Shown: positions 249 to 52,151, counted from the first letter of the whole stretch. The stretch: 61,931 nt of DNA, filler included, from Hausera hauseri (GCA_046269625.1; 10 parts of 10 records of this genome joined end to end with filler, not necessarily neighbours in it); one strand, 5' to 3'. Program-made: numbers and translations. Notes: generated by a model from the letters alone, not told the origin.

Positions 249-1010
249 CTGCCGATGTCATTATCATTTAAAGCTATAATATCTCGATATTTGCGGAATA
301 ATTGCAGTAATTTTTTCAATTCAAATGGGGTTAAATCACCGACTTTAAATTTGATATTTTCATTTTCTACTAAGAATGTTGCTGCGCATAACTTAACTGG
401 TTGTAATTTTCCTAAATTGAGGTTTTGCCATAGTTTGATTGTCTTTTATTAATATTTTCTATTGGTAATTCTAAACTTTGTACTCCTTTTGATACGAATA
501 AGGGATATTATAAAATCTTATATTTTTCATTGTTATATAAGTTCGGTTCAAACACACAAGATTGCTCATGATATTGCGGCTGTATTCTTAACATCACCAT
601 CACTTGTTGTTGTTGTTTTATGATAACATCATGAGTTAGAGTCATACTGATATCCTCAATTGGCAAGTTGTTTAGTGTGTATCTAAGAATCTTGGTTGAT
701 AAATCTATTGAGAGTCCTAAAATATGTGACAGTACATCCATTCCTATCATCAGAGGTACTGGCAGTATTTTATTGTCTGCCACAAATAAAGTGATGGTGT
801 TTAAATTACCATCAATTTTTATTTTGATATATATTTTTCCTAGAAATTGTACTTGAGTGGAATTTGCTGCTTCTATTACTATATTACTCGGCATGATTAC
901 TCCTTTTTGATCGTCCGTTAGGTACGAATGTCGAATCATTGACACTTATGCGCCTGTATCTATTAGTGCATAATATTTAATCCATTAAATCGTACACGGA
1001 TATAGGGGTT
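249..1010 (-). pseudogene. Retroviral-type aspartic protease and pre-RT spacer of an env-bearing Gypsy element
   Basis: PYIRVRFNG..(frameshift)..YALIDTGA*VSMI at ~940-1010; IEAANSTQVQFLG and LMIGMDVL in ORF 508-945; LLQLFRKYRDIIALNDNDIG pre-RT motif cut by the LTR at 248. Confidence 0.85.
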
Positions 1011-1429
1011 ATTTCCCGTTGTAATGATGGTTTGGGTCATAAAAATGAATTTTGTATTATTCCTTCGGGCATCCGTGGTATTATATTGTCGAAGTACGTT
1101 TGGTGTGTATGTTGTACTTGATAAGCAGGTGCATTCACCCAAAGCTCTGGCCATAGAAAGATTGTTTATGGATGTGACCTTCATTTCTCTATTATCAGGG
1201 TATTCCAGGAATTCATCAATAGGTTCGGGTTTATACTATGTTGGTGTTTCTGGCTTGGAGTGTTGTCGAGCTTTCTTCCTCAATAATTTATATTTAACCA
1301 GGTATTCTTCTGCTGTTAATTTAATAAAGGCTAGTAACTGTTGCTCCAATTCTGGGGCTAGATGCGGTTCTTTTCTTAATTTATCAAGTTCCTTCGCATG
1401 CCAATACATCAATACTGATGTATAATTTG

Positions 1430-3232
1430 CAGCATAATTTGCCATGTACAACCACGTACTTTCTTTATATTTCTTGCAGCTCCTATTTGTCTTAAAATGA
1501 CCATTATTGTGGTAATTATAACATATATTCCGAAAACTCCTGATATAACTTGGCCAAAAATAAGGAATTTATTTTACAAATTATAAAGGACCTTTTTATT
1601 TGTTCTTTCTAAATGATCAATTGGCAATAACATTCCATAATTAGGTATACCATCTGATCCTTTCGTAACAGTATATACAAATTCCGTGATGACTTTTTCT
1701 AGGATATTCTGAAATAACACTTGATTTCTTACCGCTTCCAGGTCTGTCAAGGAAGTTCTCTATTTACTTTAAACTTCATCCCTTTATCCAATGGTAATAG
1801 TCCAATAGTCTGAGGTATGTTCATCACTGTTGGTTGGCGTGTTTTAGTGCATCTTCCATCGTTAAGTTTGAAGGCTGGATAAAAGTCTTTATAACATGGC
1901 GCAAAGCTGATTTCAGTAGGTAACAATAAATCTCGAGTAATAGGGTCCACATATCCCATTTTAATTATGTTTTTGTCGTTGTATTGGACCATTAATTCGT
2001 TCGTGCAATTTGCTTTCGGAGATGTTACTGGCGTTACCTTTTTCGGTGGGCATTGGTATACATGGTGTATTTCACATTGTACTCTACCAAATGTTCCAGG
2101 GCGATATCCCATAATTAAGGCAATATATTCGGGGAACTCTCTAACTAGTACCACGTCGTTTTGGTTCAATTTTTGAGTGATTTTACAATCTCTCAGTACC
2201 ATCATATTATAAAATTTAACTAAATTCATTTTTGATGTTTGATAGATATAGTCTATCTTATTATTCGTATATAGGTACCACTATATATCTTCAGTTGGCA
2301 AATTTTCTGTATTTGCCAGAGTTACCTTTGTTACGAATAGATCTTCATAAGATGCCAAATAAACTGCATTCGATCCACAAGTTGATACTGCTCTTTTACG
2401 TGCCAGTACGATTCCGTCTTTGCCACTGGATGACATTAAAACTTTTAGGGAAATGATCTGTCTTAAGGTTCGTGGGGTAGGCAAACTTACATTATAGTTA
2501 TGTTCAGTTTCTTGATATTCGTCGTCATAATATAAATCACCTTGTATTTTGTACATAGATACCTGTTTAAGGAAGGCTAATGGACATATTATGACCGTTT
2601 TTTTCCAAATTAGGGTGGATTCTCCTAAGGTATATACTCCACTAGAATATGTACAGGATGGTGCGGTGAACATTTTTCCTGTTATTGAGTAGAAATTTAC
2701 TTTATATTACTTTATGGTGACGGTATAATCTTCTATTTGTACTACAGCGGATATTTTTTTGTCCACTTATCATCATACTTTCTCCTTTACAGGCTCCGCC
2801 ACATCCAGACCATATTTTTCCGGCTGTAACTATACGTGAATACACTCGTTTTCCTATGCCTGCCTGTAGTGGCTGTTGAAGGCCTACATGAATTGAGTCT
2901 GTGGATTTTCTACAATTTTCGGCTGTTATTGTCACGGGTTTAGGAAGTCCTGATGGAATAATTACTGAGTTCCACAAATTATGACCGCAGTTATAGGCGA
3001 ATATAACTTTATTAACTTGACATTCCTTTACTTGAACTTGTTGATAACTGATTCTTTGATACAAGTTATAATTGTAAGGACCTTCCTTCTTTACTGATAT
3101 CGGATTTGCGTTCTGACATTTGCTGGCTGTTATTTCTGGTTTGGAGCAATCATAAGCTTCTAACGCTTTCGTAGTATTTAGGCTACTAACGGCTATTAAA
3201 TATAATAATAGATGAATAATTTGTACAACCCA
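1430..3232 (-). pseudogene. env: Envelope glycoprotein, chuvirus/herpes gB-like class III fusion type, frameshifted
   Basis: Hydrophobic leader then LEAYDC, ECQVNKVIFAYNCG, GACKG, GTFGRVQCEIHHVYQC, CTNELMV..GYVDPITR, and a C-terminal TM (KFLIF/GQVISGVFGIYVIITTIMVIL) near 1500-1580; collinear with 4629-6429. Confidence 0.8.
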
Positions 3233-3280
3233 ATCTGATACGTTGGTATCTTTGGGGTATATTAACGTAGTGGGGTTAAC

Positions 3281-3646
3281 TTTCTTGAGGATTTCGTCCC
3301 AACCACCTTGTTTGGTTACCCAATCTCTCGTTAGCTTATCCATATGATGGGCTGGGTCCCTTATTATATGGTGTAACTTGGTGTCGACTTCCGTCTGGTT
3401 TTTGAAGCTGACCACTAATCCTAATGCCATCAACAACCAATTTAGGTCACATTCCTTTAACAATCGTATCAATGCTTTATTTAAACCTCCTTTCGGTTTA
3501 TATTTCTGTAATCTCGTAAATTGCGATGAGAAATTTGTAGCAGTTTCTATTATGGACTGCAATGAAATTGTGGAAATTGTTGGTATCTTTTTGAGTTGAT
3601 TTGATTTAGCTTTCTTGATTAATTGTTCCAAAAGTTCATGAGTCGT
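3281..3646 (-). CDS. Bcl-2-family-like domain inside ORF 2702-3859, in frame with the env leader
   Basis: BH2-like DWVTKQGGWDEI (3290-3325), BH1-like LLKECDLNWLLMAL (NW at 3437-3442, canonical GR missing), BH1-BH2 spacing of ~40 aa, followed by a hydrophobic tail. Confidence 0.7.
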
Positions 3647-3859
3647 CAGTGTTACTTTTGGTATATTTATTTCGCTCTGATTTGATATTCCAAGAGCAGG
3701 ATTTTGTGTTTGTTCATTCTCGTAATCAATAATGGTAAATTGTTGGAAATTATCGTATAATATATATTCTAATGTTATCCATTGTTCCTTACGTTTTCGT
3801 GACAAGGATCTTTTTTCTTTGCCTTTCCAGCTTTTCTTCGGGATTTTCTTCATCATCAA

Positions 3860-4628: not shown

Positions 4629-6429
4629 AAGCAAATAGGTGCTGTTACCGTCTATGACTGCGATAAGTTTAAACTAGGACAGAAGTGCTCTCGAATGGAT
4701 TTAGAAGTATGTGAGGACGCCAGACCACACAAATTGGAAACGAGAGAAAAGTTATTTCCTGTACCAATAACAAGAATTAATATCATAGGACGGAATGGAA
4801 TGTATGTTAAGACGATCTTGTAGCATTTTCCATTGTGGATTAATGCATGGACATTAGTCAATAATCAAACCAACGACTCCTCTAATTCCAATGAATTTTG
4901 AACGCCATCATTGAAAACAGGCCAAGGAAACCGGAAGATTAAAATGGGATAGTATGGAACTAGAGATGCAACCCGGAAAAATAATCAGATTATATAAAGT
5001 AGTGGTTGGAAGGCTAGAGATGCATAATGGACATTGCAACGGAACAGAATATGACACTGGAAAAGGATTAGAAGCAAACGTAGTAGTCGTAGATTTCTAT
5101 GAATCAGAGATGCGAGTACAGAAAGTAATGTTCAGCAGCGTTACCAAGCTATATGCAGAAAATCAAGTGTCATTTACAAGACGGGACGTGTGCTTTTAGA
5201 AGTTCTGTTATAATATGGGTCCTTCCTCTGGAAGAAACTGTAACTTTATCAAAATTAAGGAATTGAAATTTAACGAAACTACCGGAAAACGATATATAGA
5301 TAAATCAGACACCAACTCAAGGACACTCGAGGTTGTAGGAGAGCACTCTACACCTACTATATTAATCTCTGACCAGTATGGGCTAAAATTCATCAAGAAA
5401 GAAATGATCTCTAGCTGTGAAGTGGTGATGTTGGCCACCAATTATGAATCATTTTTCGTCGCCGAGACGAAAATAAATGCGAAAACTTACAAGTTAGAAA
5501 CAGGACATTCGGATTGAAGATTACCTGAAAAACCGAGACGATTACCTTTATTAAAAGGACAAGTTGGAATACCCGAATTATACCACAAAATGATAACAAA
5601 TGATTGTAAATTAGATATGGGAATCATGAGGACAAAACTAGCTCTTATCTATACTAACCCCGAGTTAGCCTCGCCAATAATTCCCATGAGAGAAGGAATC
5701 TTCGGTCGAGTTACCGGTGAAGTTATATTGACTTATAAATGTGAGAGAAGAGACGTACCAATCAACGTTGAAGAAAACATTGTATACAAGAACTTCCCGT
5801 TATTTACCAGAATATTCCAAGATTAGCCACGCCGCTTACTAGTGTTGTTAGACAATGCAACTTAACCAACAATGCTTACAGATTGTAAAGCAAGTTTAAG
5901 AGAACCCATGTTTAGGCGTAGCGAAACAGACTGGGTTAGTTTGCTAAGTGGAGATATTACTGCCGCTCCAAATAAATAAACTGGAACAAATCTTGCAAAA
6001 GGGATTACTGACGATAAATTTCAAGATACCTTATCTAAAGGCATATATAGACATAAGGAAACTGAAGCTTTCAGACAATTTCTCGCTTTTCCGAGACAAC
6101 GCATGCATGAATTAAATCGAGCCATGGACTCCGTAGTAGATGATACTCGATATCAAGCTAAATGGGAATCACTGTTTTGTGTAAATCATTTCCGGCGAGT
6201 AACCACAGAAATACTTTACAAAATTTGGGGAAGATTTTTGATTTTTGAACAAGCCGCATCTGGATTTTTATCAATATATTTCCTAATACAAATGATTAAG
6301 GCCGTCATTCAAGCAGTAATAAATGGCTACGAAATATTTACATTGACCGGATTTTCATGTAAAATACTGACTGCAATAATTACACCTTTTGGAAATTTCT
6401 TAAAAGCATACGAAGAGAATAGATGGTAA
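4629..6429 (+). pseudogene. env: Second chuvirus/gB-like env glycoprotein, frameshifted
   Basis: AVTVYDCDK at contig start, IFHCG, GHCNGTEY, GIFGRVTGEVILTYKC, TM WGRFLIFEQAASGFLSIYFLIQMIKAVI. Confidence 0.8.
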
Positions 6430-7081
6430 TCAGGCATAGAACGTCATGTCGGTTATCATAATCGTAAACGAAAAGGAAGGCTTATGTTCTTGTACAAGCG
6501 GAAATTTACAAAACCTAATACTCGAAGAAATAATTCAGATGATGACGAGCCTAAGGACGGAGAAATACGCCCAAGAACAGACAGACATAAGATGTATTTC
6601 GTCATTAAAGCACCATTGCCTATGCTACCCCCTATTGCTCCAGTCTATGAAGACTGTGACAAGCGATCAATGAGCTTATATCAGACAGAAATCTAGAAAA
6701 GGGCAATTAGTTTAGAAGACCCATATGAAGGAACAAAACGTTACGGAGTCCTACGGAAAATGTGTTATCGACAGCCTCTCGACGATCCCAGAATATTGTA
6801 TTCCCCGAGAGAACCACGGAATATAGAGATTAGGTCACATGTCTGGGAAAATCCAAGGTTAAAAGCCTTCCGGAATATAGAACCCCACACTAACAATCGA
6901 GAACCATTAATTAGTACTCATGAAACTGAAGAATTGAACATGGAAAATAATGAATTATATCCAAACGGAGAATTAATACAATTGTCGGAAAATATAGCAT
7001 CCTTTCCAGAAATCCGAATAAACGGACGAATAAATTAAACTCCCAAAAGTTGCATCAAACTGTTTTGGAACAGTAATAGAA

Positions 7082-9600
7082 GGGCGACCCTTCGCCAAAG
7101 TTATTGAAGACTGGGAAGTTTATGCATTAATCGGTACAGTTTCCGAGATGTCTTACATTAAAAAGGATTCAATACCTCAAACGTTGAGAAGACAATTATA
7201 CCCACCATCTACAAAGGATCCATGAAATAAAGGAGCTTTTGGCCAAATGTCGAAACCCATGTTTAAATGGAATCAAGAAGTTCAAATAGTGGGACAGTTT
7301 TTCCACCATGAATTTGCATTTATGGAACAATTAACTAACGATGTAGTTTTAGGATGTAATCTACTCAAAAGACTGCCAAATATAGCAATTGACTTGCAAA
7401 CAGGAAAATTAATATAAATCAGACCAAATAAAGGCGTAAAAACGCTAAGGATAGAAAATTTGGAGAAGTGTGGATACCAGTAGATGAAAATATTCCACCA
7501 AGAACAGATATAATAATCTACGCGCAGATTCAATAAGATGACGATCAACCGGTATATTTCGAACCAAAGGAGACATTAAATCCGAATATAATACTTAGTA
7601 ACATACTGACAATAGTATACTCCGGTCGTGTGCCATCAGTAAGAGGCTTTAGATAGACTCTCAGGAGCAAAGTGGTTTAGTACTCTGGATTTACAATCAG
7701 GGTATCGGCAAGTAGAAATCGAAGACGAAGACCAATATAAAACAGCATTCAAAACACACGATGGTGTTTATAAATCCAACGTCATGCCGTTTGATATTAC
7801 TACCGGATCGGCCATATTTACGAGGATGATGAACAAAATGTTATTGGGGTTAGATCATGCTTTTGCATATTTATATGATGTAATGATAGTGTCAAGAAGG
7901 GAAGAGGAACACCTAAAGTATATTGAACACACACTGATGAGACTGGAACAGGCCGGATTGAAGTTAAGTCCAAAGAAATGCAAATGGGCTCAAAACGCAG
8001 TATCCTGCCTTGGCCATATAGTTGGAGAAGGAGGATCAAAACCAGATAAATCGTTATTAAACAAAATATCGGGTTGCATGGAACCACAAAATCAGAAAGA
8101 GTTAAGGCATTGGCTAGGACTCTGCGGATATTATGACAATTATGTACCAGACAATTCGAAAATAAACGCACCATTATACCGTCTACTTAAAAAAGGAATT
8201 AAATGAAAATGGACAGATGACGAACAGAAAGCTTTTGACGAAATGAAGAAGATATTAAAGAGTGAACGAGTTTTACGATACCCAGACTTTAACCTACCCT
8301 TTATAATCAAGACAGATGCCAGCAAAGAAGGTATTGGGTATGAATTAGCACAGAAAAGAGAAGGTGAAGAATTAGAACATCCATTTGCTTATAGAGGACG
8401 GTCCTGGAAAAAGGCCAAGAAAAACTATTCTGTCACCGAATTAGAAACTTTAGCCGTAAAAAAGGCGCTTCGACATTTCAACGTTTATGTGTGTGGGCAG
8501 AAAATCATAATTGTTACTGATCATAAAGCCGTCACTACCCCAAAAGTACGAGCAAATAATCCAACATGCAGACTTAACAGATGGATAGAAGAAATCTCTA
8601 GATATGATATCGAATTTCAGTATAAGCCAGCAAATAAACATGTACACGCCGATTCGCTATCAAGATTAAAGATTAAAACAAGTGCAATCACTGTAATGAA
8701 GAAAAGTCAGCTTGAAGAAATAATAGATTGCCAACGCGCCTTAACGATGGATAAAGCGATTAAAATCTCAACCGAACAAAGGAAGGATAGAATTATCCAG
8801 CAGAATATAGGATTTGCTGAGAAGTACATAGTACCAAAAGGACGACAATTAAAGAAACATCTACGTGGACATGGACACAAATATTGCGTTCTGAACAAGG
8901 GCCCAGAAAACTTTCTATATTATGATCGAAAAGGAAGAAAACTGATAGTTATTCCGAAAAATTTACGAACTGAAATTTTAATGTCAGAACATGATTGATA
9001 TTCGGCAGGACTCATGTCCTGTAAGAAAACATTAGACAGAATATTGAACAAATATTTTGGGCCCAGCATTTATATTGATGTAAAGAATTGGGTAAATGCT
9101 TGTGAAGTATGTGCGACCAAGCAAAAGAAAACGAAAAAGTACATGGCAAACTGAAACCAGTCGACGTGCCGGACATACCCATGCAGGCCATATCAATGGA
9201 TATCGTAGGACTATTACATACGACCCATGAGAATAATAAATATATCTTAACTTGTATTGATCGGCTAACTCATTTTGTTGAGTTGATAGCGCTAATTGAT
9301 CAAAAAGCAGAAACCTTGGCTAAAGCTGTAGTTAGAAGAATCATTTGCCGATATGGACTGCAGACCAAATATTGACAGATCGAGGAAGAAATTTTACCAT
9401 TGAACTATTTGATAATATTAGCAAAATATTTGAAATCGAAAGGTTAATTACAACTGCGTATCATTCTCGGTGTAATGGAATGGTTGAACGAACGAATGCA
9501 ACTGTCATACGCATACTATCAATCGTAGTAGCTAAGGACCAAAAAGATTGAGACGAATTTTTAGGAGGAACTCAATTTGCAATTAATACCACTCCGCATC
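7082..9600 (+). pseudogene. pol: Ty3/Gypsy pol (protease-RT-RNase H-integrase), degraded, truncated at contig end
   Basis: RPFAKV..YALIGTVS (decayed DTGS), WFSTLDLQSGY, KTAF, MPF, YLYD (YLDD), IKTDAS, NYSVTELE, TDHK, HVHADSLSR, SMDIVG, ILTDRG, CNGMVER. Confidence 0.95.
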
Positions 9601-9700: not shown

Positions 9701-12285
9701 AAACTGTTACTCAGTATTCGTATGCCTTATCGGAGCTAGTAAAATATTATGCTAATACTGTTAAGACTCAGATCTTAATTAGAAAATCCAATGCAAAGGA
9801 AGACGAATAAAAGTTGAAACAGACATTCACTTATTCACCCAATTGTTAAAGGTGTCAAAAAAACATTAAAACAGATTTAAAAAAAAAATGTTTAATATTC
9901 AACGAGGTAATACGAGGCACAGAACTTCGAAGCTCATGTGAGCTCCTACAGAGACGAACGATCATCAAAATCTAATCAGAAGTTTACCCCAACGTATTAC
10001 TGAAACTTTCTAACGATTATAATATCAAACAGTCATATAATAAATATGTAAGCACAAAGTTCCAGATCTTATGCACATNNNNNNNNNNCAGTGTTAAAGT
10101 TTGCATTGCCTGGGGTATCTGAGTACCCCTAACAGAGTTTAACCGTTAATAATCAACAATATCAAATTAAACCCCAGCAAAATCAAAATAATTATAACGA
10201 TTTGAATGCTTCGTACCAAAAGGGTAATAATTCTGGTAAAAAACCATAAAAATAGTAATAGCCCATCTAATCAATATCAGCAAAAAGGTCAGGATATTAA
10301 CAGAAATGGTACACCCATAGTCTGTAAAAAGTGCGAACTAACAAGCTATAACTCCATAAATTGTATGACATCTGTAGACCAACTTGCAAGCATAAAACAA
10401 GAAAAAAGTGTGAATTTATCATACATTCATGAAACTTTAGATGTAAAGCTAAAATTAGACAGATTACCACAAATAGTAAAAGAATAATTCATTAACCAAG
10501 CTGTTAACGAAAGCAGAGAAGTGGATGACATGTTAAAAAGATATACCGGAAAATATGAACCCCGTGCATCATCTATGATAGAAGACGATTATATTGATGA
10601 GTTCGTTACAAATAGTATAATGTTAACAACGAGAAAAAGAGCATTAGATAAGATAATGAAAAGAATACCATTAACACCATCCGAGGATCTGCTACTTAAA
10701 GCAATGTCCATTGGATCAGAATCAAAATGGGATAGTTATGGTAATTATGAAACTAATGTTTATGAAAATAATCTGACTAATTTATTATCCCCACCTTCAC
10801 AATTCGATGAAAATTGTAAGGAAAAAGAAGAGCCAGATAAAGAACCAATAGCAGTCATAGATTTAGATAAATCCACGGATGAAGAATCTGAAAAATAACC
10901 TCATATTGATGAAGAATCGGATAAATCTATCCGGATAACGAAAGTAGAAATCATACGTAAACTAATGGATGTAACAGACATAACTGATCCTATTAAACCA
11001 ATAGTAGTAAATAAACCAAGTCCTCAAAAGGTAACGAAATCCGATAGTGAAAAATTTCTAACTTCGGTTCACCAAAAGAAAGCCAAAAAGATAAGTAAAG
11101 TAAAACAACTATTACTTACCGAAGCGGATAGAGAAGGAAAATATATAGCCCAAAATATCAAACAAGATACTAAAAATATCCTAACTGACGAAATACCTTC
11201 TTACGCTAAGGATTTACTTGAAATTAGCTAGTTGTAATGTCTGAACAATTAAATGATCCAAAAGCATTAAAACAATCGGAAGTCTTTAAAAACTTATTAA
11301 CAGCATTAAACCAAGTTCATAAGAAGCGATATAAGCAACAATGTTTGAACATAGAAAATATCATTGATGAAATCTTAGGAAGAACTAAAAAGATAGATGA
11401 AGAACAAATCAACAAGAATCCAGTTGACATAATAAATCTAACTGTACATTCCCCAGAGATTCAATTAGATATAAACCAAATTTTAAGCAAAGCTAAAAAT
11501 ATAGACATGAAAAAAATGACAAATGTCGAACAATTACAAAATCTTTTGTAAGTATTAGAAAATTATCTGAAACGAAAAGGAAAAATACCTTTTCTAGAAC
11601 GAAAAAACATACAAAGTGTAATAAGAGGTCTCTAAAAAAATTATAGATTTCCAACTCAAGAATCAATCTGTAGTAGAGATTTACTTCGATATATACAAAA
11701 TAATTCAAATGAAACTCTCTAGACAAGAAAAAATGAGATGGACAGAGCGAAAAAATCAAGTTGCTCAAACCATGGAATTCCCAAAATAAGTAAAATAAGT
11801 TTAAAGATACTTTCTCTGAAATGGATCGAGCTAAGATCGATTCTATTGAAAATTTTCTAGACAAAATTGATGATACTCTTAAACTAATGGCTGAAGTCGA
11901 AAAGCTGAAAGAAAAACTTGAAAGTAAAATCTTAAGGCAAATTGATAAAATCAAGGTTAATAAGCATTTGAAAACTTTAAATAATTTGAAACCCTTCTTC
12001 ACTGAACTTGATAAGAATAAACTTAAGAAAATAGAAGAATGGTATAAAGATGCTACCACAGACCAGTATGCATCACAAGAAAATCTTGGCGATATAGATG
12101 ATATTGATCGAGAAGAACTTGATAATATAGAAGAAATAAATAATGACGACGATCTCGAGTTAGCTGAAAGAGATGTCGAAGAGACTCTACAACAGTATGA
12201 AGAAATCTGTAACGAACCCTTACCTGCTCAAATAATTCGAGATGAATATTTAATAAATAAACTAAAATCAGATATAACTATATAA
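9701..12285 (+). pseudogene. gag: Gag C-terminal part with decayed zinc knuckle, followed by a long charged/coiled-coil extension
   Basis: TVTQYSYALSELVK capsid-like motif at the contig start; CKKCELTSYNSINC (10323-10364, CX2CX4[H>Y]X4C); consecutive same-strand K/E/D/N-rich ORFs to 12285. Confidence 0.6.
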
Positions 12286-14447: not shown

Positions 14448-17400
14448 TTATTTCAACCTCCAATGACCATACGCCCAACCCTTATTTTGCCCAACCCACT
14501 TTCGCTTATCATCGTTAAATAACAGAGAATTTCGCACTAGTTATTGTATACAGCTGGTGTTAAATTGGTCGGTTGATCGTTTGAGACACAACAGCCACTG
14601 ATTTTCCTCCTGTTGTTGCTGTTTCATACGGCGATAATCACCGTGGTCAATTTCCGTCTGTCTCAACTGGACTCCTTTTACTCGAATTTTCGGTCCACAG
14701 TCCGTCAGAAGACTGTAGTACTTTGGGCGTAGGAATATCCATTCCCGGTACCGGACATGACCTTCACTTTCATCCTTAAAGCAGCCGGTTTTATTGGTGA
14801 TCGCGCTGCTGTACAACGGATGATCCGCTGAGTAGTTTGATATGTCCAGTAATCCATCTGACTGCATTTGCTACAGTAGCTGTTCGTGATTGACGTTTTT
14901 CAGACGCAGGAAAAAACTGTATCACCGGCAATTATGTCAATATTGCAGCTGTCAAACATTTGCCGGTAACGTGCCAAATCCCGATACTGCAGCTCATACA
15001 CCCGTAACTTGCTCAGGTCCAATACCACTTATCCGATGTAACTTGACCGGTGCAGAACGACGTCTTCCATGTTTAACAGCACTTCAACCAATCCATCGGC
15101 AATGTGCATTGACCGCCGAAACTGTGCCTTGCTGGTATATGTAACCAGCCGCTTTTCCGAGTTACATAGGCGCACATTGAACCGCTTTTTCGGATTCTCC
15201 ACTGCTTTTCCGTACAGAGAATTGTTTTGCCGATTGTAGTAGTCCTTTTCGAACTTTGTACAAGCTGCGGCTCGTTTCTCCGAATTTCCATCTATGTACG
15301 CCTTGAATATGCGCGCCTGAGCAAATCGGATTGCACTATGCAGCTGCGTGACGCGTACAACGAGCTGCATGTAGAACTGTAGCAGACGCCAATGGACCAC
15401 GTAATTCAGCTTTGATTCATGCGACATGAGCAGTTTCTTCACTTTTGAGCCTGGCGGACATTGGTTAAATGGTGCGACCGTAAATTGTCTAAAACGTCAT
15501 GCAGCTCATCTGGTATCTCGAGATCGACCTCCATCAGGTATCCGACTGAGACTGTCATGTCTGCTCATGGTAGGTTTGTCATTATGTCATCCAGATCTTG
15601 CTGTCGACTACCCATTCAAGTGAACCGTACGGCAAGGGTTGCGAAAGCGCCCAGCCGTACAGGTTATTAATATCAATGTGCAGCAGTGATGTGATATCGG
15701 TACCACTGACCTGATGCTTGTTGACAAATGTCATGCCAACATCAAACATTCGGTACATTTCCGGGTCTTGCAGCAGCTCAATGTCTTGATCCAGTGACAT
15801 CAGAGCTGACGCCCAACTCATTCTCGGTATGGAATAAAAGTTGAGTGGCTCAAACCTATCATTCGCCAGCACTTTGGTCCAAAATGCTTCGAACACGTCG
15901 GATAATAAATACACGCCCAGTGTGAGGTACTGGACATGTAATCTAACATGTTTCTACAGCCCAGTTCTATCCAAGATTCTTATGCTCTCCGATATTCATC
16001 TTCTGCGATACCTGTCCATCGCGGCAGTAATTCCTCTGTTATCCAGAGTCGCTCATATGATGTTGCAAAGTCATATGGAAATATGCATTTGCTGTGTGCA
16101 ATATGTGTGGGGAACTACGTTGAGGTTACTCGCACATCCGGCAAGGCATTTGCCAGCTTCGCCAGTGATTCATTGAGAAATTGCAATGAATCAAGGAAGC
16201 GTACCTGGAACCGGTTTATGCGTGCTAACAGGGACAAGTATTTCTCCATTGTTGTTGGGATTATGGACAGTTCCCAGTTCGGAAATCCGTTGATAGCCCA
16301 TTTGAGTATATGGTGACAATCATAACCTCCGGAAATTATGAAAGACCACCCGAAGGAATGGTCGCACTCGCCCTGCTAAATTGCATGAATTTCATATTGC
16401 TCCCAAGTATTGATCGGCGCAATCGTCGTGATCCGGCACGAGCCGTTCCTGTGCATCAAACGGTATTATTTTGTGGCACAGATAGCATTCATCGGTAAGA
16501 GCGAAAAGCAACGGTTGATATTTGTCTGCCAAAATCAATGGCTTATTCCAATTGTTGTGATACCACGGCGCGATTTCCGTTTCCACTATGGTTTCCAACT
16601 GTTGCAGGAAATCACGTACACGTTTCCAACCATTGAAAACGTAATACTGTGGTTTTCCGGCGGCTTTTATTGGAACAACCAACCTACCGACGGCGATTGG
16701 AATGTGCTTTTCATCGTATACGTTGGGCCGCGATAGGATTGACTCGATATCAGCATATACCGCATATGCCGAACTGTCTGTTTTTGGCCAGTCACTGAAT
16801 CTCAGCTTCTTTTTGACTGGCATGACGTACATTGTTGTCCTTGATGAATTTTGTCTGCACAGCGCCACATATTTTTCCCCATGTCGTTTTTGACCTGAAA
16901 CCTTGCAGACATGTAGGGCACCATTTACAATTTATACACTTTTTGATGAATTGGTGGTGATCATTATTCAGCAGTCTGTCCAAATTGGTTACTGCCACAT
17001 AGTGAAATTTATCTGCTTGCCGCAACAGCAACAAATTTACCGAGCGCCCATTCGGGTTCCGACTGCGATAAATTATATCCATGCGTGGGTTTTTGTATAT
17101 CTCTTTGTTTGCTGGTATTTCTACGATTATGTTGTACCGGAACACGTTGATTGCCAGTATCGGATTACGCCGTTTTGAGTTTTATCTGCATCCAACACTC
17201 GCCGTAGTCCAATTCTGAGAAATGCTTACTGCTATGCTTGGGACAATTTGCATGATGTCCGGACACTTGATCATATTTCAATATAGCCAGAATGCTGTAA
17301 ATAAAGCAGTATTTGTCGTTAGTATTTTGTACATTCACTACTGCCAGAGACTGCTTCAAGAATGCAGGTGTCGGTATGAATTAACGTCCAGACAGGTAAA

Positions 17401-35760: not shown

Positions 35761-35930
35761 AATCACAATCGTTGTCATAAAAATGTTATCAAATCTGTGC
35801 TGGTCATGTTGATGAAATCTGGCGTAGTGTTCTTTGTTACCTATCGGGTGAGAAACTTCGAGCTTATCGAAAACAAAATGTACATTTGTATATTATGTTT
35901 TAATTAATATTAGTTTCAATGACATAAGCA

Positions 35931-39114: not shown

Positions 39115-39809
39115 NNNNNNNNNNNNNNNNNNNNNNNNNNNNNNNNNNNNNNNNNNNNTTAATTAATTAANNNNNNNNNNNNNNNNNNNNNNNNNNNNNN
39201 NNNNNNNNNNNNNNGCCAAGATTTTCTGTCTTTGTTGTTGTTCCCAGGCAATGGCAGGGAAACCTGCCAGCTAATGGGCAGAGGATTTGAATGGTCCCCA
39301 ATTGAGTCGTGGATCACTTCTAGGAAGTCAAACATTGCACTATAGCCTGGAGGACCTCTGTCCACCTCCTAGACACCACTGGGACAGCAGGAAAGCTCAG
39401 CTACCCTCCTCCATAGTCCTAATTTGGACTGCAACAGCCCTTCTCAGGGCTCACCCAGAAGATCTGACGCTCGGTGACATGGAGATCAATCAAATAACAA
39501 TAAATAACAATGCCGTGAAACTATATAAAATACAGCCAAACACCAAGAGGCTGAGAGATGATTGGTGGTTCTGTAATACGTCTAAGTGTGTAATGAATGC
39601 TGAAAACGATTAACATAAATAAGATTAAGAATCTTGAGGATCATTGACTTTGATGATGGAGAAAGCCCAGGGCTGGTCAAGCCATTTGTCTTGTATCTCA
39701 TTAACGTCTATTGATGTCAGCGCGTTAGTTTCATCCTCACTTATCCGCCTACAGTATCTTCGTCAGTGTACACTGTCATCGCCAGGAGTATCTAACTGTG
39801 ACACTTTGT

Positions 39810-39940
39810 ATCTACCTCAGCTTAAATTGACTTCCAGGTCAGTGTTAATATCTCTTTCAGCGTAAACTGACTTTCAGGTCAGTGTTAGTTTATCCCTCAG
39901 TGTAAAGTGAGTGTTAGGTCAGTTTTAGTATCTCCCGCCA
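39810..39940. repeat. About three degenerate ~40-bp tandem repeats downstream of the Gypsy pol
   Basis: Unit like TATCTCTCAGCGTAAACTGACTTTCAGGTCAGTGTTAG repeated three times. Confidence 0.7.
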
Positions 39941-39959: not shown

Positions 39960-42900
39960 TTAGTTTTCCTCCAACATGTGTCTCACTTGCTTGGTGGACA
40001 AAGTACAAAGGTCAGCTTCCTCAAAGATACTTTCAATAGCTAATGTTAATTGTTTAACATCTGGCTCAATGCCCTGATTATGCAGACGAGCATTTCTCAT
40101 ACCCATTTCTGTGATCAACATATTTCTTAGGCGCATAATGTCATTTTCATTAGCATCTGGTACTTCTTTTATTTCCATCAGATCATTGGCCTGCGCTTTT
40201 TTCTTTCTTTTCTGTCGCAACGTTGCCTGTCGTGCTGGTTTTGATCATGGTAGCGAGTCAGCTGAGGTACTAGAATCTCTAAGTCGTTTCCATCTGCGAA
40301 TCATTTCATCTGTATCAACTAAGTGGAATCCGATGCATTTCTCTCATCACTTTCGCTTTCAACCATTTGAGATTGTTCATTTTCTTGAGCCTGCTGTTGC
40401 AACTGACGTTCGCGATACACCAACCTTTTCTTGCGTTCTAACAATGGCATATCAGAGTCATCTGATGAACTACTTAGCTCAACTCTTCGACTATTACATT
40501 GTTGTCTCCTAGCTTCTTCAAACTTCCTTTTAGCCGCAGCTCTAGTGTTCTGGTATGGGGCATCCGTTTCTGTTTGCTGTCATGGATTATTGCTATTAGA
40601 CTCATTGTCTGTTCTACACGTCCCTTGTCTCGTACTCTTTGGTAAAATAAGCGGGGGCGTACACACTTCATATCTTGTATCACTCTCAGACGTATCGGAT
40701 AATTCCGTTCGATCTGTGTCCCTAGATTCTTCCGAGTTCCTGTTCTCAGGGGGTACAACATAACTGGATCGTCTAACCATACCTGTCGTATCTGGTAGCT
40801 GTTCGGTAGGAAACGACCTATCATCTCGTCTTAACTGCGACGTTGTAACTCTTGCTGTTTGTCCTGTGAGTTGATTGGAGATGCGATAGGATATAGGACC
40901 TAACTTTTCAATGATGGTATATCCTGTAATCCATCTATTTTGCATTTTCGAACTTCGGTGATGCTGTCTGTAACAAACTTTATCGCCAATTTTGAACTCT
41001 TGATGCACAGCAGTGTTATCAGTTCTTTTCTTGCGCACTTGGAATGACTTAGGTATTGGTGAAAATCATCTCCATGGTATCGAAGTCGTGGTCGAACTAG
41101 CAAGTCTACTGGAAGAATAGGATCTCTACCGAAGATCATTTCAAAAGGTGAGAATTTTCTACTTCCGTTTTCCATCATTCGCAACGTCATGGCAGCTTGA
41201 TTCAAATATAAGTCCCATTCAGCTAACTGATCCTTCGCATATTTCGTTATGACGTCATAAATGACCTTGTGCTGGCGTTCGTTAACACCATTAGCACCTG
41301 GATTATAATATGAAGTAGTTATATGCTTTATATGTAACTCCTTCAACGTTTCCTTCATTGCTCTGTTTACGAACTCTGTGCCGTTGTCAGTAATGATTTC
41401 CAAAGGGCAACCAAAAACAGGTATAAACTTTTCCAGTAGAACATCAATAATGTTCTCAGCAGCTTTATTGGGTAACGGATGCAGTTCTGGCCAGCAGCTA
41501 TAAATGTCGACGATGTGAAGAATATAGACATTCCCGGATGCAGTCAACGGATGTGGTCCGGACAGGTCTAAACTGACTTTCTCAAAAGGGAAATGAGCCT
41601 GTGTGGGTTCCTGCATAGGATGTCGTAGTATGTCCATATTTCTCAAACGACATGGCTGACAATTCATAACATATTCTGCAATAGCTTTCTGCACGTTTGG
41701 CCAATAATATTTCCTGTTTATCATCGTAAACGTGCGGGCGCGTCCAAGGTGTCCTAAGTTGTCATGAAATTGAGTCAACCACTTATGCGTCATATGACTA
41801 GGAATGCATAGCTGAAATGTGACTTCACCGCTCAATCTGTACAAAACGTTATCATCCAGGATATACTTTTTCCACTTAGAAGAGCTGCCATTTACTTCCG
41901 ATTTCAAATCACTGATAATTTGACGAAAGTCAGCATCTTTTTCTTGCTCATCCTTCATGCCTATAACTTCTATATCACTTGGCTCTGATTCAAGGTTACT
42001 GTATGTTTCGGACTGCTGTGGTTCCATCGCATTGATGACAGAAACTTGGAGGGTATAATCATCAATGTCGGGTATTTCATCTTTACTTTCTGGCTCGATT
42101 TCTAACTGATCTTTCACAGGCATACGGGAAAGCACATCAGCGACTGTGTTTTCCGGACCTGGTATGTATTCGATTTGCATATTGTAACCTTGCAAATTCA
42201 AGACCCACGGTTGAATTCTTCGATTTTGCACATCCGATCGCATCATCGCTTTTAGAGGCATATGATCAGTTTTGATCTTGAACTGACTGTTATGCAGGTA
42301 AAAATGGAGTTTTTGAAGTGCAAAGTGAATAGCGTAAGCTTCTTTTTCAGTAACAGACCACTTCTTTTGGGATTTTGTGAGCCTGTGGGATAAGAAGTAT
42401 ATGGGTTTCTCCTTGATCTCAGTCGTGCCTGTTTCCGTTAATTGCTCTTCTTCCTGGACGAGGACTGCTCCTATAGCATAGTCTGATGCGTCTGTATACA
42501 GAACATATGGCTTGTTTGGATTCGGATATGCAAGCATCGGGACTATGGAGAGGCTAGTCTTCAAATAATCGAAAGCTTTCTGACAAGTTTCATCCCACTG
42601 AAAACGGGCGAATTTCCTCGTTAGCGCAACTATTGGTTCTGCTATTGCTGAGCAATTTTGGGATAAAGCGTCTATAATATCCACATGTTACCAAGAATCC
42701 GCGAACTTCTCTAGTGTTCTTTGGTACACCCATCGATCTAATTGCCTGAACTTTTTCTGAGTCCGCCTTGATGCCTTGTTTCGTAATAACAAATCCCAGA
42801 TATTTAGTCTCTTGTCTCAGAAATTCACACTTGCTGAGCTTCAGACGAACCTTGTGCTGGCGTAACCTGTCGAAAACAGTTTCAATATGCTGCAGATGGT

Positions 42901-43804
42901 CTACAATATCTCCCTTGGTGAAAATCAGAATGCCATCGATGTTTGCCAACGCAAAAGTTTGCAACCCTTCCAATACTTGACTCAACAAAGACATATACGT
43001 TGCCGGTGATCCTTTTAAACCAAACGGCATAACATTCCAGGCATAAAGACCAGAGTGAGTGCAAAAAGCACTTTTCTGTTTCGCCTCTGGCATCATGGGA
43101 ATACACCAGAATCCGGAGCGAGCATCTAACGTAGTGAAATACGTTGATCCACTGAGAACTCCTAGAATGTCATCGATTAACGGAAGAGGAAAACTCACAT
43201 TTGTCGTAATCGCGTTCAAAGAGTGATAATCGACACAAAAGTGGTGCGTACCATCTTTCTTAGAAACAATGACCACCGGAAATGACCATTCAGAACGTGT
43301 CGCTCAATTATTCCTGCCTGTAGCATTTCTTCGACCGCCTTCTCAACAATATCTCAGTTTCCTAATGGTGTGCGATATGGTTGGAGACTAATGGGTGGAT
43401 GATCTCCTGTATCAATCGACATTTCAACCGTTTGCGTTCTCCCTAATTCCATGTCAGATAAAGCAAACACATCTTGATGTTCGACCACAAAGTTCTCAAT
43501 TGTTGTCTTATGTTCAGAATCGACCTTTAATGTGGCTAACAAGTTTGCTATGCGTTCCTCAGGATTTGTGCACGCTGCAATCTCAGTGTATGCTTTTCGT
43601 TTCCACGCTCCTTCTCTAATGTATTTAAGGACTTGGTGTCTATGGCGGTAACGTTGTTCTCGTGTGTCAACGGAAGTCGAATGGTTATCAGCTATCAGAG
43701 CATCATCAATGTGTATACCATCTTGATTACAGTCCCTAGGAGTGTTTGGCTTGGCTGATTTAGCAATAATGCATCCTTTCTTTAACTTTATCATTTTGCC
43801 AGTA
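39960..43804 (-). pseudogene. pol: Ty3/Gypsy pol (RT-RNase H-integrase) with a long C-terminal tail ending in a DEK-C-like motif
   Basis: FCVDYHSLN, LDARSGFW, MPFGL, NIDG (decayed YIDD), YTDASD, TDH, HDNLGH..CQPC, DLSGP, TDNG, NGVNER; FKIGDKV..LGPISY; terminal PDVKQLTLAIESIFEEADLCTLSTKQVRHMLEE. Confidence 0.93.
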
Positions 43805-45901: not shown

Positions 45902-46490
45902 CAGTGGCGTGCGGTGACTTTCTTCGTTGGGGACTAGCTTCCATGCTACTTTAAGAGGCCTTTAAAAAAGTATTTTTGATATGATGTGTAGAATGTATCT
46001 TAACAAAGAAAATTTCACCGTGACAAAGTACATAGTGTGACTATCTCAAATGATTCAATTTGACATTAAAAATCAAATAAACATACAAACAATGATAAAA
46101 ATGAACACAGCTTCCAACAAACAATTAAACAGAAAAACTATTTTTAAAAGGCTATGAAAACATTGACTTTTGTTTGTGCGTTAATGCTGTCCTCATGTCT
46201 CCTTTCTGAATGAATTTTTCAATGACAACGTCATAAAAAGACCATAGACTTCGCAGTTCATATAGGAGGTCTTTTTCAATTGATAGCAGGGAAAGACTAG
46301 ACAAATTGTCCGCGCTCTGTATGTTACACATATACATCTTTATACGTTTCAAAAAAGAGAAAGTGTGTTCTATAGTGAACATGCTCACTGGTATTGATGA
46401 TACCAAACAATATAATTTATATGTTTCTAGATACACTTCATCTGCTAGTTATGTTTCTTTCAGGAACTTCATTATTCTGTTATGGAGATG
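45902..46490 (-). mobile_element. hAT transposon 3' remnant (dimerisation domain and terminus)
   Basis: IPVSMFTIEHTFSFLKRIKMYMCN..LSSLSLLSIEKD in ORF 46152-46436; terminus CAGTGGCGTGCGGTGA at 45902. Confidence 0.8.

Positions 46491-46651: not shown

Positions 46652-46694
<43 letters not shown>
46652..46694. repeat. (CA)n microsatellite
   Basis: About 21 perfect CA units. Confidence 0.98.
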
Positions 46695-48428: not shown

Positions 48429-49420
48429 ATGAAACAAATGTATGAGGAAATGAAAATAATAGTCGAACAACTGCAAAAACAACAAGCAACAATAAGAGAA
48501 TCTAGAGGAGCGAGATCAGGACTCGGAAATACTATTCCAGTTAAGAATGCACTGGAGAAAATTGAAATTATGATTACTAAAATCGATATGAATACCCGTC
48601 ATCAAAACGTCCGTACCTTCATCTAACGATTGACAGGAAAAGATTCCAAACAGTATAAGACCTGGATTTCTCAGGTCGAGAAATATGCGCATCTTCTTAA
48701 GTGGCCGTCAGAAGACAAAAACGAACTTGCTTACATGACTTCTGATGGCCTAGCGAACGTTTTTATCAGACGTAGATTTTGTTCCCAGCCTATAGAAACT
48801 TGGGATGAATTCAAGAGAACTTTGACACACAGATATGCGGAAGTGGCAGACATGCAATATGCAGCTGAAGCGATGAAGAAGATACATCAAGAAAAAGGGG
48901 AATTAGTACAATTTTACCGCACAGAATGTTGAATTTGGCTGAAGACACTTACGCTGGACAAAAGATTTATTCTGAAGAGAGGCAAACTTCTCGTTCCGAC
49001 CTTCATAGATGGATTAAGGAATATCAAACTTGAAATCAAACTCATAAAGGAAGAGCCAACAACGATCCAAGCAGCAATTCCAACAGCTATTGTTGAGAAG
49101 AACTTTAACAAAAGAATCACAATGAGCCTCGGTAGAGATCAGTATGAAGCACGAGAGGAAGAAATTATGGAAATAAATTAATGCAGACCAAGATTTCAAA
49201 ATAGACATTACGAAAGCTACAGATTTAGACACAGAGATGTCGTACATAAGAAGACCGTCCATGAAGTTGAAAGTAAACTGAAATGTTATGGTTGTGTAAA
49301 GAAGGACACTTCATCAAAGAGTGTAGAAATAAAAAACGCAGAACATATGAAAAAAGTCAAGAGTATGTTTCAAATGTGGCAAAGCTGGACATTTTGCAAG
49401 AATATGCAGAACAAGAACCA
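48429..49420 (+). pseudogene. gag: Retrotransposon gag with two CCHC knuckles
   Basis: YKTWISQVEKYA..TWDEFKRTLTHRY..IHQEKGELVQFY, TFIDGL; CYGC/KEGHFIKEC (49284-49324) and CFKCGKAGHFARIC (49366-49407). Confidence 0.9.
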
Positions 49421-50449
49421 ATGTGAACAGAAATGAAGCCAGATACCAATAAAAGTCCTGTTCAGCAATAGGCTCGGTGAGGAACAGGGATACAATTGGA
49501 ACCACTCAAAGTATGATAAATAAAAAAAATAAATTGTCCATACACCTTGAGGTGCGTAGGGGCGTGGTTTCAAGGGCCCCACTAAAACTCACAACAGATG
49601 GCCAGTCCAAAAGTATGATAAGAAAAACTTAATCTCAGCAAAGAAACAGCAAAACCACAGACAAATCCGGATTGACGAGCGTAGCAGAAAAATCAAGAAG
49701 ATTTAACGAATGCAACAAGTATAAATAACCTGAATGATGTATTCCGTAACTCAGAACTACCAGACCCCACATGTCATTGAACAAAGAACATATAAGTCAA
49801 GTTATGAAGTGGAACAGCAACACCAAAGAAGAAAAGTTCAGAACCAAACCCAAACACCCACCCCAACCCAGAGCTTTTTGCAAGACCAAAACCCAGTCAA
49901 ATCCATCCCAATCCAAGTACTAGTCAGTCCCTCCCACCCACAATAACACAGAGGTAACCCACAAATAGAAAGCTAATACAAAGAACGAGACCAAGAAAAA
50001 ACCAACGGAGTCGCCATAGAGAAAATGTATTACAGGACATCCGAGAAAGATTATGGGAACAGATACGAAGGAATGGGATACCATTCGTAGCAAATGAAGC
50101 ACAAAGAAACATGAAGACTATAGGACGAACGGTATGCCAAGACCACCATGGAAAACTAGAGTTAACCATAAGACTTCCAACGCTCACCATAGAGATTACA
50201 GAAGCGTTCATAACGACATGCAGACAGATATGCCATACAACCCGAAGAATAAGTTATTAGATCCGAAAAGATGGCAATCCCCGTGAATGTGGGACCCAAG
50301 CTTCAATATGGGGACAGGGATGCATCAAAGCTTTCACAGCCAGCCTCCAGTCAACAAGGTGAATGCGTCCATCTGCACAAGTCAAGAAGGATGACCAAGC
50401 GCCTGCTGCCAAGAGAAGACAACTCGCAGTTACAGAGGCATAAATCCAT

Positions 50450-51600
50450 CCATCTATACCAAGATAAAAGTTTGAAGCTCTTCACAAGTTCTTCGAGAGA
50501 AACAAGCAAGATACAATTATAAAAAAAAAATTCTTTCAGAAAACTCTCCCAAATATTCCGAAATTGGCTCTCCAATTACCAGAACATTGTCTAAAAGCTT
50601 TCCCGATTCTAAAACAACACACCAATATGAAAATCACTTTGAGTCAGCAACAGGTTGCATGTCTTTTTAGCAAGTGCATTCGTATGCACATTCCCTAAAC
50701 ATAACTACAGACCGAATTATCGGCGACTACCAGAAATTAATTTTGTGAACATGAACAGGGGTCAACATGTTGAACAGAAAATAGAAAAGCTCTAGTGCAT
50801 TATCAACAATTTTCAAAGAGTAACTACTGATATGCCGAATCGAGCAGTGACATACGCGCGTCAGAAAGTATCAAAAGGCGAATTCCAAACCAAGACAAGT
50901 AAGACGTTCACTAAACTCCAGATGTCAACAGAGGGAACTATTGAAGATCAAGGGAGAGGAATGCTACAAGAGAACTTTACGAACAAAAATATAGGTGGAA
51001 GTATACTTGGACACGGTATACCACAAGAAGAGATTTGCCTTTTGATCTGTCCTTAGATGATTTTGCACGACTGTTCACAGAATCATTGACAGAGAGTGAT
51101 GTCCGTATCACAACAGGATGCGAACGCTTCAACAATTGCGAGGGATACTCGAATATGTTCAAGTTTAAAGGCAATTATGAAGACACAACAGAACGAGATG
51201 ACCAAGGTAAAAGATACACCGAAGTAGTAGCTATGGATGCACTATTTATTAAAGATTTTAAGACCCAATTTAAGAAAGATAGCGTTCTTAGAGAACTGTA
51301 TAAAGCTTACTGTGCGTTTAAAGGAATGAACAAATCAGCAGTGTGTACAGGAAATTGGGGTTGTGGTGCATTCAGAGGTGACAAACAATTAAAAGCTAGC
51401 AATTAGTTAATGTCACCGAGCGCAGCAGGTAGTGACACTTATCTCACATTCGGCGGTGCTAAATTCAACGACGCATTACGACAGTTACACAATATCCTCA
51501 TAGAAGGAAAAGTGAATATACAAAGGCCTTACCCATGATTGAAACCTATAACAAACATCTGCGTTACGTAGCAGTTAACCAAGAATCTTTATTCCACTTC
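50450..51600 (+). pseudogene. PARG: Poly(ADP-ribose) glycohydrolase catalytic domain, downstream of gag
   Basis: TLPNIPKLALQLP, ITLSQQQVACL/LASAFVCTFP, EINF, EKL*CI, GTIED, NFTNKNIGGSILGHGIPQEEI (QEE 51024-51032), GCERFN, EVVAMDAL, RELYKAY, TGNWGCGAFRGDKQLK. Confidence 0.93.
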
Positions 51601-52151
51601 ATCATCAAGAATATAGAAAGACAACGCAAGAAAAACTTGAACATCCAAGAAATGAGGTCCGATCGTGATGTAGTAGAAACCAGAAATACTGAGTCACTGA
51701 GAAGCCTACAACATGTCGAGATGCAGGTAAATGAACAAGAATCCACATTAGACAGAATGATGAAAGCAGACACGTCTATGGAAGCAGCAGCAGTTGAAGA
51801 AGTCACGACACGGAAGAACGATATAAAGCCGAAATACAGATAATGGAATTACGAGTGAAAGATCTTAACGATGAAATCAATATATACAAAGACAAGTGCG
51901 AAGATGCAGCAGCAACGAATTTATGTTTAGCTAACGAATTAAAACAAGAGCAAGAAGATAAAAAGCAAACCAAAGAACTCAGTGAGACATTACAAAGAAA
52001 AATATGTACATTACAAAGCCAAATAAAGCAGATTGAAACACAAGACTTGAAAAGCAACGAAGTTGAAAGAGAACTCAAAAATGTGGATGCAGAATTAATC
52101 AACGAACAACACAGTCACTTGAAAAATAGTGACGCGTCAGGATTGCCCTGA
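51600..52151 (+). pseudogene. Coiled-coil continuation after PARG
   Basis: E/K/Q-rich heptad-like ORFs 51535-51843 and 51843-52151. Confidence 0.55.

Follow-up and report, generated by a model that had tools for sequence, protein, structure and literature searches.

Putative Burro-Type Ty3/Gypsy Fragments with a Bcl-2-Like Domain and a Separate gag–PARG Piece in the Hausera hauseri Assembly

Do Ty3/Gypsy pieces which, on unlinked contigs, carry a class III membrane fusogen, a Bcl-2-like domain and a PARG enzyme belong to one kind of element, or have unrelated things been merged? The question is raised by a stretch of the Hausera hauseri genome assembly (GCA_046269625.1), hereafter the window: 61,931 bases made up of ten unlinked contigs (4.0–16.0 kb each) separated by 9 identical artificial spacers (N44, 12 nt, N44). 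A preliminary description of positions 249–52151, a span crossing eight of the ten contigs, had proposed giant, possibly infectious Gypsy elements whose gag-to-protease interval is a cargo bay for death-suppressing modules (Bcl-2, PARG), with a DEK-C-like integrase tail and gene mosaics as further products. With a probability of about 0.78, we consider that unrelated things were merged: contigs 1 and 2, which are of the Burro type described from planarians; a separate gag–PARG piece of snail type on contig 8; an ordinary pol on contig 7; and the coding-like stretch of contig 3.

Giant elements were not found in the window. The longest retroelement stretch was shorter than 5 kb, and every retroelement piece was broken by stops and frameshifts, so that intact polyproteins were not confirmed. 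Pfam families were sought in all 246 stop-to-stop frames of at least 65 amino acids (aa) and in a selection of 12 in which X was substituted for stops; Atlas scores (0.84–0.88) were counted at lead level only.

Fusogen-Bearing Contigs 1 and 2

The two contigs with a class III fusogen are 4.5 and 5.0 kb in length. On the minus strand of contig 1, a helical stretch was followed by a ubiquitin-like domain, an acidic linker, a Bcl-2-like domain, a hydrophobic helix and the fusogen with its transmembrane helix, and then by a linker, an aspartic protease and the approach to reverse transcriptase (RT), where the element is cut off by a repeat (1–248, 80% identical to contig 4). The fusogen (1430–3163, minus strand), of gB-type and Monjiviricetes-like, matched Pfam Monjiviricetes_fusion (PF24664; E = 4e-10 and 1e-15), was broken by frameshifts and stops and had a C-terminal transmembrane helix at about 1493–1549 (hydropathy 2.53). 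The protease (721–1008, minus strand) contained an in-frame stop and matched gag-asp_proteas (E = 1.9e-4, below the curated cut-off) and RVP (E = 1.2e-3). In translation, the protease-to-RT spacer (249–720, minus strand) is possibly a degenerate dUTPase-like stretch by eye; its size is suitable, though no dUTPase family was detected in it at E ≤ 1.

On the plus strand of contig 2, a second class III fusogen (4629–6426; PF24664, E = 2e-7 and 3e-19) started at the contig edge, had a transmembrane helix at about 6265–6321 (hydropathy 1.93) and preceded a pol region (7031–9600) with RT lacking its N-terminus, RNase H and an integrase cut by the contig end (RVT_1, E = 1e-24; RT_RNaseH_2, E = 1e-32; rve, E = 5e-6). 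A degenerate protease stretch was seen here by eye only, with no Pfam protease at E ≤ 1. Mutual identity of the two fusogens was 24–27%. The preliminary description was right to place a class III fusogen before pol twice: it precedes the protease on contig 1, and on contig 2 it comes before RT, RNase H and integrase.

A search among proteins of 675 to 2,000 aa (3,041 candidates) yielded one relative of contig 1, P0001, encoded on a 7.6-kb contig. This protein of 1,963 aa had no break, was 67% identical to contig 1 over 374 columns and aligned with it from the coding start of contig 1 through the end of env. The ubiquitin-like, Bcl-2-like and env block lies in the single frame of P0001, which stops after env. 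Its fusogen also aligned with that of contig 2 (24% identity, 585 columns, E = 1e-27). The part of P0001 ahead of env, 1,340 residues long, had no gag, MATH, BIR or ankyrin family according to Pfam, so that its cargo in this part may not be that of Burro. An Arg/Ser-rich region is followed there, at residues 360–810, by what look by eye like a cupin and two degenerate exonucleases of DEDD/REX4 type; Pfam gave nothing there at E ≤ 1. If they are real, the cargo upstream of the ubiquitin-like domain would differ among lineages of the Burro type.

The ubiquitin/SUMO-like domain of contig 1 (3890–4153, ends approximate, minus strand) was frameshifted, ended in a di-glycine and had 74% identity to residues 1024–1112 of P0001. 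PF11976 appeared for this stretch of P0001 at Atlas rank 4 (score 0.84, a lead only), and two window pieces of contig 1 gave no match to ubiquitin-family Pfam profiles at E ≤ 1. The Bcl-2-like helical domain (about 3274–3655, minus strand) was 69% identical to P0001. Its match to Pfam Bcl-2 was weak (E = 0.13, 13 bits against a cut-off of 31) and covered the C-terminal half of the profile (positions 56–100 of 100); the first Atlas clusters were BID, Bcl-2L15 and Bcl-2L14 (0.85–0.88, lead level). By the usual definitions of the BH1 and BH2 motifs, a BH2-like W-x4-GGW was present in both contig 1 and P0001, and the canonical BH1 NWGR was absent from both. Structure models of the domain were unusable (mean predicted local distance difference test score, pLDDT, of 49 alone and 41 with P0001). 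In a fold search with the first of these low-pLDDT models, the best 50 matches were helical bundles of a generic kind and included no chain of Bcl-2 type. Sequence searches of solved structures matched neither Bcl-2 nor ubiquitin nor a fusogen.

Between the Bcl-2-like domain and the fusogen lies the hydrophobic helix (3185–3241, minus strand; Kyte–Doolittle 19-mer maximum 1.75), a putative membrane anchor and internal signal sequence, with 81% identity to P0001. The fusogens of contig 1 and P0001 were 60% identical in the ectodomain and 87% near the membrane anchor, with 14 of 15 cysteines in common, and two flanking stretches had 43% and 49% identity. Since the domains are conserved better than the linkers, this comparison, which involves two protein sequences and is not a test of nonsynonymous against synonymous substitution (dN/dS), argues that selection has maintained the ubiquitin-like/Bcl-2-like/fusogen block and that it did not come together once by chance.

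Comparison with Burro

By Arkhipova and Yushenova (2019; PMC6431247), Burro elements of planarians are described as having long terminal repeats (LTRs), a total length above 25–30 kb and a polyprotein of 4,873 to 5,140 aa. Gag with 2–3 knuckles and accessory domains are followed there by a Ubi2/SUMO-like domain (PF11976), a BCL2-like domain, env and protease; env, with matches to mononegavirus fusion glycoproteins, is located between BCL2 and protease, and a dUTPase-like domain precedes RT. MATH, BIR, ankyrin and Smc domains were also reported, decaying fragments were noted in Dugesia japonica, and the elements were proposed to be integrated proviruses meddling with apoptosis and ubiquitination (PMC6431247). 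BURRO1 has been described as an abundant and active element under PIWI control (PMC8532177). For Platyhelminthes, Nematoda and Bryozoa, PMC13524379 reports GAG-ENV-POL elements whose env is of gB type; among them, according to the supplement, are six from Schmidtea mediterranea that span 14.5–18.0 kb (45, 215, 3, 8, 1 and 1 copies) and that, judging from their size, we infer to be Burro. The env rows of these six elements are colinear by eye, with no tool alignment, with both window fusogens.

Contig 1 shares with Burro/GYPSM1 of dugesiid planarians a mononegavirus-like fusion glycoprotein ahead of the protease; its putative Ubi2/SUMO-like and putative BCL2-like domains precede the glycoprotein in the order published for Burro. 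Both contigs share with it a fusogen before protease (contig 1) or RT (contig 2) and decay with stops and frameshifts, whereas gag, MATH, BIR, ankyrin, the LTRs and the length of 25–30 kb are not visible on contigs as short as these. With the gB-type errantiviruses of PMC13524379 they have in common a class III env before Ty3/Gypsy pol (env–RT–RNase H–integrase on contig 2, env–protease on contig 1); those elements are intact and often multi-copy, whereas the window copies are dead and broken throughout. Burro, Bcl and PARG have 0 occurrences each in the main text of PMC13524379. A title and abstract search, outside which most subscription journals lay, found Bcl-2 together with a gypsy env in PMC6431247 only.

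From domain order and the by-eye env comparison we regard contigs 1 and 2 as dead fragments of known Burro-type GAG-ENV-POL Ty3/Gypsy elements, of which both the architecture and the provirus/apoptosis idea have already been published. A match to a described family, which the preliminary description had counted against itself, was thus found for its strongest part, because the order on contig 1 and the provirus/apoptosis hypothesis are in print for Burro (PMC6431247). Its picture of virus-like elements with a cell-death module holds for contigs 1 and 2 in the form published for Burro, but is not supported for PARG, DEK-C and the extension, which are located in other families. The Bcl-2-like and ubiquitin-like domains occupy exactly the positions published for Burro, which raises our confidence in both calls. 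The Bcl-2 assignment is made with moderate confidence: the domain is in the right position and has an Atlas lead, but the Pfam value is weak, BH1 is missing and the fold is unconfirmed. The window adds two divergent dead fragments of the Burro type and an independent sign that the ubiquitin-like/Bcl-2-like/fusogen block is under constraint across lineages with env 24–60% identical; this evidence supports the 2019 proposal without going beyond it.

An active element of the Burro type would encode one long polyprotein comprising gag, accessory domains, the ubiquitin-like and Bcl-2-like domains, the hydrophobic helix, fusogen, protease, RT, RNase H and integrase. The helix would anchor the Bcl-2-like domain and, as a signal, thread the fusogen into the endoplasmic reticulum; cleavage would occur after the ubiquitin-like domain, at its di-glycine, and also through signal peptidase and the element's own protease. 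The fusogen might carry particles between cells, and the membrane-anchored Bcl-2 fold might dampen death or immune signalling of the host. For any of the modules, Bcl-2-like or PARG, a role in suppressing cell death is a prediction.

Several poxvirus Bcl-2 folds inhibit innate-immune signalling. It is possible, although we find it somewhat less likely than not, that the Bcl-2-like domain was conserved for another job, as an env anchor and signal or as an inhibitor of innate-immune signalling. The absence of the BH1 motif from contig 1 and P0001 is consistent with such a job, as is the fact that the hydrophobic helix and env-proximal parts are the best conserved (81–87%). However, the BH2-like motif is kept and identity is 69% across the domain, and the BIR domain reported for Burro (PMC6431247) points to apoptosis control.

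The gag–PARG Contig

All coding features of the gag–PARG piece on contig 8 lie on the plus strand. A Ty3/Gypsy gag that has two CCHC knuckles and belongs to a short-gag family (48540–49446; Ty3_capsid, E = 5.5e-6; zf-CCHC, E = 4.8e-6; gag profile, E = 1e-52) was followed by an intronless, near-complete catalytic PARG of land-snail type (50127–51687, delimited with a gastropod PARG profile) and by a coiled-coil coding stretch (51798–52148) that gave generic coiled-coil matches only and had no protease after it. Canonical PARG consists of a helical part and a macrodomain with the signature GGG-x-QEE. Both PARG_cat_N and PARG_cat_C matched at 50468–51403 above the cut-off (E from 4e-14 to 5e-37). 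No introns were present over 368 aligned residues, at least two frameshifts and several stops were found, and QEE was retained with adjacent conserved positions partly changed. Judging from these matches, the gene is a genuine PARG. The preliminary description was correct in this respect and in setting PARG downstream of gag, but the gag-to-protease placement was not borne out: contig 8 had no protease, RT, env or LTR pair and no 3' element sequence. A protease seen by eye just after the gag knuckles was dropped, as no Pfam protease was found at E ≤ 1.

Profile comparison left about 680 nt between the last gag knuckle and the first PARG homology without assignment. The coding-strand excess of A over T (skew 0.16–0.42) ran unbroken from gag to the coiled coil and then stopped, and no poly(A) tract followed the PARG. 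Because of this continuous skew and the lack of poly(A), a once-continuous gag–PARG–coiled-coil frame is plausible.

Relatives were sought with a gag plus part-PARG query of 1,200 residues against 1.84 billion representatives (50% clusters), and the best 150 of 1,014 matches were used. Among the 144 newly retrieved relatives in this set, 53 matched gag, 91 matched PARG and 0 matched both; no gag family was detected in PARG relatives among the best 120 of 123. All 38 of the 38 gag relatives aligned were 252–428 aa long; as short, free-standing gags they speak against a cargo position between gag and protease in an env-bearing polyprotein. The nearest named relatives of the contig 8 gag were Bradybaena similaris P0130 and Lottia gigantea P0135 and P0147 (31–34% identity). 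One gag relative also matched the integrase tail of contig 7, and the contig 8 gag was therefore grouped with contig 7-type elements, not evidently with Burro. Short-gag Gypsy elements of molluscs thus share with the window the contig 8 gag and the contig 7 integrase tail; they differ in that none of the 53 gag relatives had PARG.

The contig 8 PARG had 54–56% identity to Bradybaena and Arion and 31–35% to trematodes. Quick trees were built from hand-picked rows, one of 36 and another of 52 out of 120. In the 36-row tree the PARG joined Arion, Bradybaena and Candidula (support 86, not starred) within a set supported at 99, and a clade of the contig 8 PARG with three trematode PARGs was rejected by the approximately unbiased (AU) test (p-AU 0.0096). 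Its terminal branch was 0.72 long, against 0.10–0.24 for the land-snail neighbours. The sample may include a second genome, that of a gastropod, as the source of contig 8; if contig 8 instead shares the flatworm-like genome of contigs 1 and 4, the PARG would have crossed phyla from a land snail.

The simplest reading is that contig 8 records an event separate from Burro, in which a Gypsy element of a gastropod took up an mRNA of its host. A short-gag Gypsy would have acquired a spliced PARG mRNA of land-snail type, template switching by RT being the most likely route, and the resulting single gag–PARG–coiled-coil chimera would later have decayed. LTR-mediated capture of host mRNA is described across animals, sometimes with several genes joined (PMC5131818). 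The window shares with these retrocopies intronless pieces of host genes next to LTR-element sequence; LTR segments on both flanks and microhomology at the junctions are not shown by contigs 4, 6 and 8, and the gag of contig 8 is on the 5' side only. PARG has 0 occurrences in PMC6431247, and no retroelement PARG was found by title and abstract, with most subscription journals outside the search. The gag–PARG piece is the sole part of the window that might be new.

We find it unlikely that contig 8 is a formerly selected gag–PARG fusion of a gastropod Gypsy lineage, independent of Burro and removing poly-ADP-ribose as a counter-defence. The near-complete intronless catalytic domain on the gag strand, the continuous skew and the lack of poly(A) are consistent with it, and the long end branch could reflect a long life inside the element, although decay likewise gives a long branch. 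Against such a fusion stand the single copy with its several lesions, the absence of a fused relative in the searches above and the unassignable 680 nt or so between knuckle and PARG homology. The broader claim seems to us quite improbable, namely that a Gypsy lineage joined a full catalytic PARG to its gag and that this module, multi-copy and under selection, countered restriction or death mediated by PARP. Baculoviruses encode PARG, as stand-alone genes in large DNA viruses; the likeness lies in a PARG within a parasitic genome, and the difference in that the contig 8 copy is close to cellular gastropod PARG, broken and placed behind gag. If gag–PARG proved multi-copy and selected, retroelements would share an ADP-ribosylation-reversing enzyme with large DNA viruses, and this would point to a testable PARP-based restriction of retrotransposons in invertebrates.

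Several further observations concern this contig and its genes. P0128, a gene model of Lamellibrachia satsuma, contained a PARG preceded by an integrase fragment matching contig 6 (40% over 60 aa); it is probably a merged gene model, yet a second meeting place of PARG and Gypsy. By eye, a non-LTR-type RNase H remnant without a Pfam match (52344–52757, plus strand) closes the gag–PARG–coiled-coil stretch. Upstream of gag were a remnant of a hAT transposase dimerisation region (46155–46448, minus strand, E = 1e-4) and a (CA)21 microsatellite (46652–46694).

Integrase Tail of Contig 7 and Coding-Like Stretch of Contig 3

Contig 7 encoded a Gypsy pol with RT, RNase H, integrase and an SH3-like tail (40583–43303, minus strand; Pfam), with no env seen. 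Its integrase tail was related to Lottia gigantea P0147, in which no DEK-C-like match was reported. A partial DEK-C-like helix pair (39966–40055, minus strand; DEK_C, E = 5.7e-5) lies behind the integrase, as had been described, but the match scored 23.4 bits against a cut-off of 24.8, covered profile positions 4–33 (30 of 54), short of the full three-helix domain, and was out of frame with the integrase. It ends where a 40-bp tandem array (39808–39936) begins; a continuation in another frame was dropped because it is the translated tandem repeat. The match may be due to chance, or it may be what is left of a chromatin-binding tail. No retroelement DEK-C in integrase tails was found by title and abstract in the literature, most subscription journals being outside the search.

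On contig 3, a single degenerate knuckle-like motif is followed by a long coding-like stretch (10206–12285, plus strand) that is rich in Lys, Glu and Asp and is broken; it was taken as the best guess for the long post-gag extension of the preliminary description. A position behind a gag was not confirmed: gag families were absent from all three of the three read-through frames by Pfam and from the gag profile search, no pol was found, and the stretch did not match P0001.

Gene Mosaics of Contigs 4 and 6

In contig 4, broken intronless pieces of Tam41, Sox HMG, CRAL-TRIO, TFIIS_M/SPOC and MSH2 abutted a Gypsy element (21500–27800, no single strand; Pfam and translation). In contig 6, the intronless N-terminal part of DYRK1 (DYRK1A, E = 1e-21) was followed directly by Gypsy RT (35928–37082, plus strand). 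The regions 21500–27800 and 35020–37082 are gene-dense blocks of intronless, broken host genes. The Gypsy elements that end the two mosaics were related (64% over 45 RT residues), and the genes of contig 4 lie on both strands with tiny spacers. The MSH2 piece had 0 word-sharing relatives among 630 candidates, and this, together with the divergence of the mosaic proteins, suggests a fast-evolving, poorly sampled animal.

The mosaics may represent LTR-element capture, decayed compact-genome DNA or misassembly; capture is possible. The preliminary description had suggested that they may be products of the same capture process as the cargo; nothing ties them to the env-bearing elements. We also weighed whether there was no capture at all, the PARG being a retrocopy beside a gag remnant or a short-read misassembly and the mosaics decayed compact-genome animal DNA. 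The contigs are short, two of them contain 10-N scaffold gaps, there are signs of more than one genome, and the genes on both strands of contig 4 are unlike a single captured transcript. However, no poly(A) or skew break was found at the PARG ends, and both mosaics end directly in related Gypsy elements. We consider an origin without capture doubtful, at about one chance in four; capture into an element separate from Burro is preferred for contig 8.

Relationships among the Contigs

The four long RT pieces (contigs 2, 6, 7 and 9) were 26–34% identical in all 6 pairs. At this divergence the retroelements are assigned to several families, not one, as the preliminary description had itself allowed. 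The cargo contigs 1 and 8 both lack RT, so their cargo cannot be placed on an RT tree. Shared repeats connect contigs 1, 4, 6 and 10 only. The observed/expected CpG ratio was depleted in contigs 5, 7 and 8 (0.53, 0.78 and 0.77; intervals exclude 1) and not in contigs 2, 3, 4, 6 and 10 (0.95–1.11), which suggests that the assembly combines two genomes, of which one is methylated and the other is not.

A single strategy uniting all modules in giant Gypsy elements is very unlikely. It holds for the Bcl-2-like and env block, and it would account for a PARG on the gag strand with unbroken skew and retained QEE and for the host-gene pieces that adjoin Gypsy in contigs 4 and 6. However, the PARG contig lacks protease, RT, env and an LTR pair, its gag is from a short-gag family, and no gag–PARG fusion was present among the 144 relatives or the best 120 PARG matches. 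The RTs are unrelated at the identities given above, the sub-threshold DEK-C match is behind the integrase and not before the protease, and the Bcl-2-like domain has no BH1, with Atlas clusters nearest to BID and Bcl-2L14/15. PARG, DEK-C and the extension are single broken copies in different families, possibly from different genomes, and none of them was seen to lie between gag and protease.

Several points weigh against the merger of unrelated things that we prefer. Gag and RT are both missing from contig 1, contig 2 opens with the N-terminus of its fusogen so that nothing ahead of env is visible, and the link to Burro consists of domain order and a by-eye env comparison, with no tool alignment to a Burro sequence. 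The Bcl-2 fold was unconfirmed by structure models and by solved-structure searches. We also count here the size limit of the search that found P0001 and the use of the best 150 matches in the search for gag–PARG relatives. On contig 8, the continuous skew, the lack of poly(A) and the retention of QEE would be expected of a fusion that was once functional no less than of an accident, and the PARG tree contains no labelled triclad PARG. Finally, CpG was borderline in contigs 1 and 9 (0.87), and the split into two genomes is not clean.

Other Features of the Window

No Rfam match reached the gathering score in the window, and PHROGs gave no meaningful match for the 9 proteins tested. Two broken protein-primed DNA polymerase B genes, Maverick/adintovirus-like (DNA_pol_B_2, Endonuclease_7), were found at 14544–17181 and 32355–34433 (both minus strand). 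A RING finger was encoded near the second of them (31004–31267), and a Cys/His/Tyr-rich frame of 153 aa without a Pfam match was located beside the first (17813–18271, minus strand), resembling by eye small viral non-structural proteins. An imperfect palindrome of 390 bp at 59264–59653 (68% self-match) is possibly a miniature inverted-repeat element.

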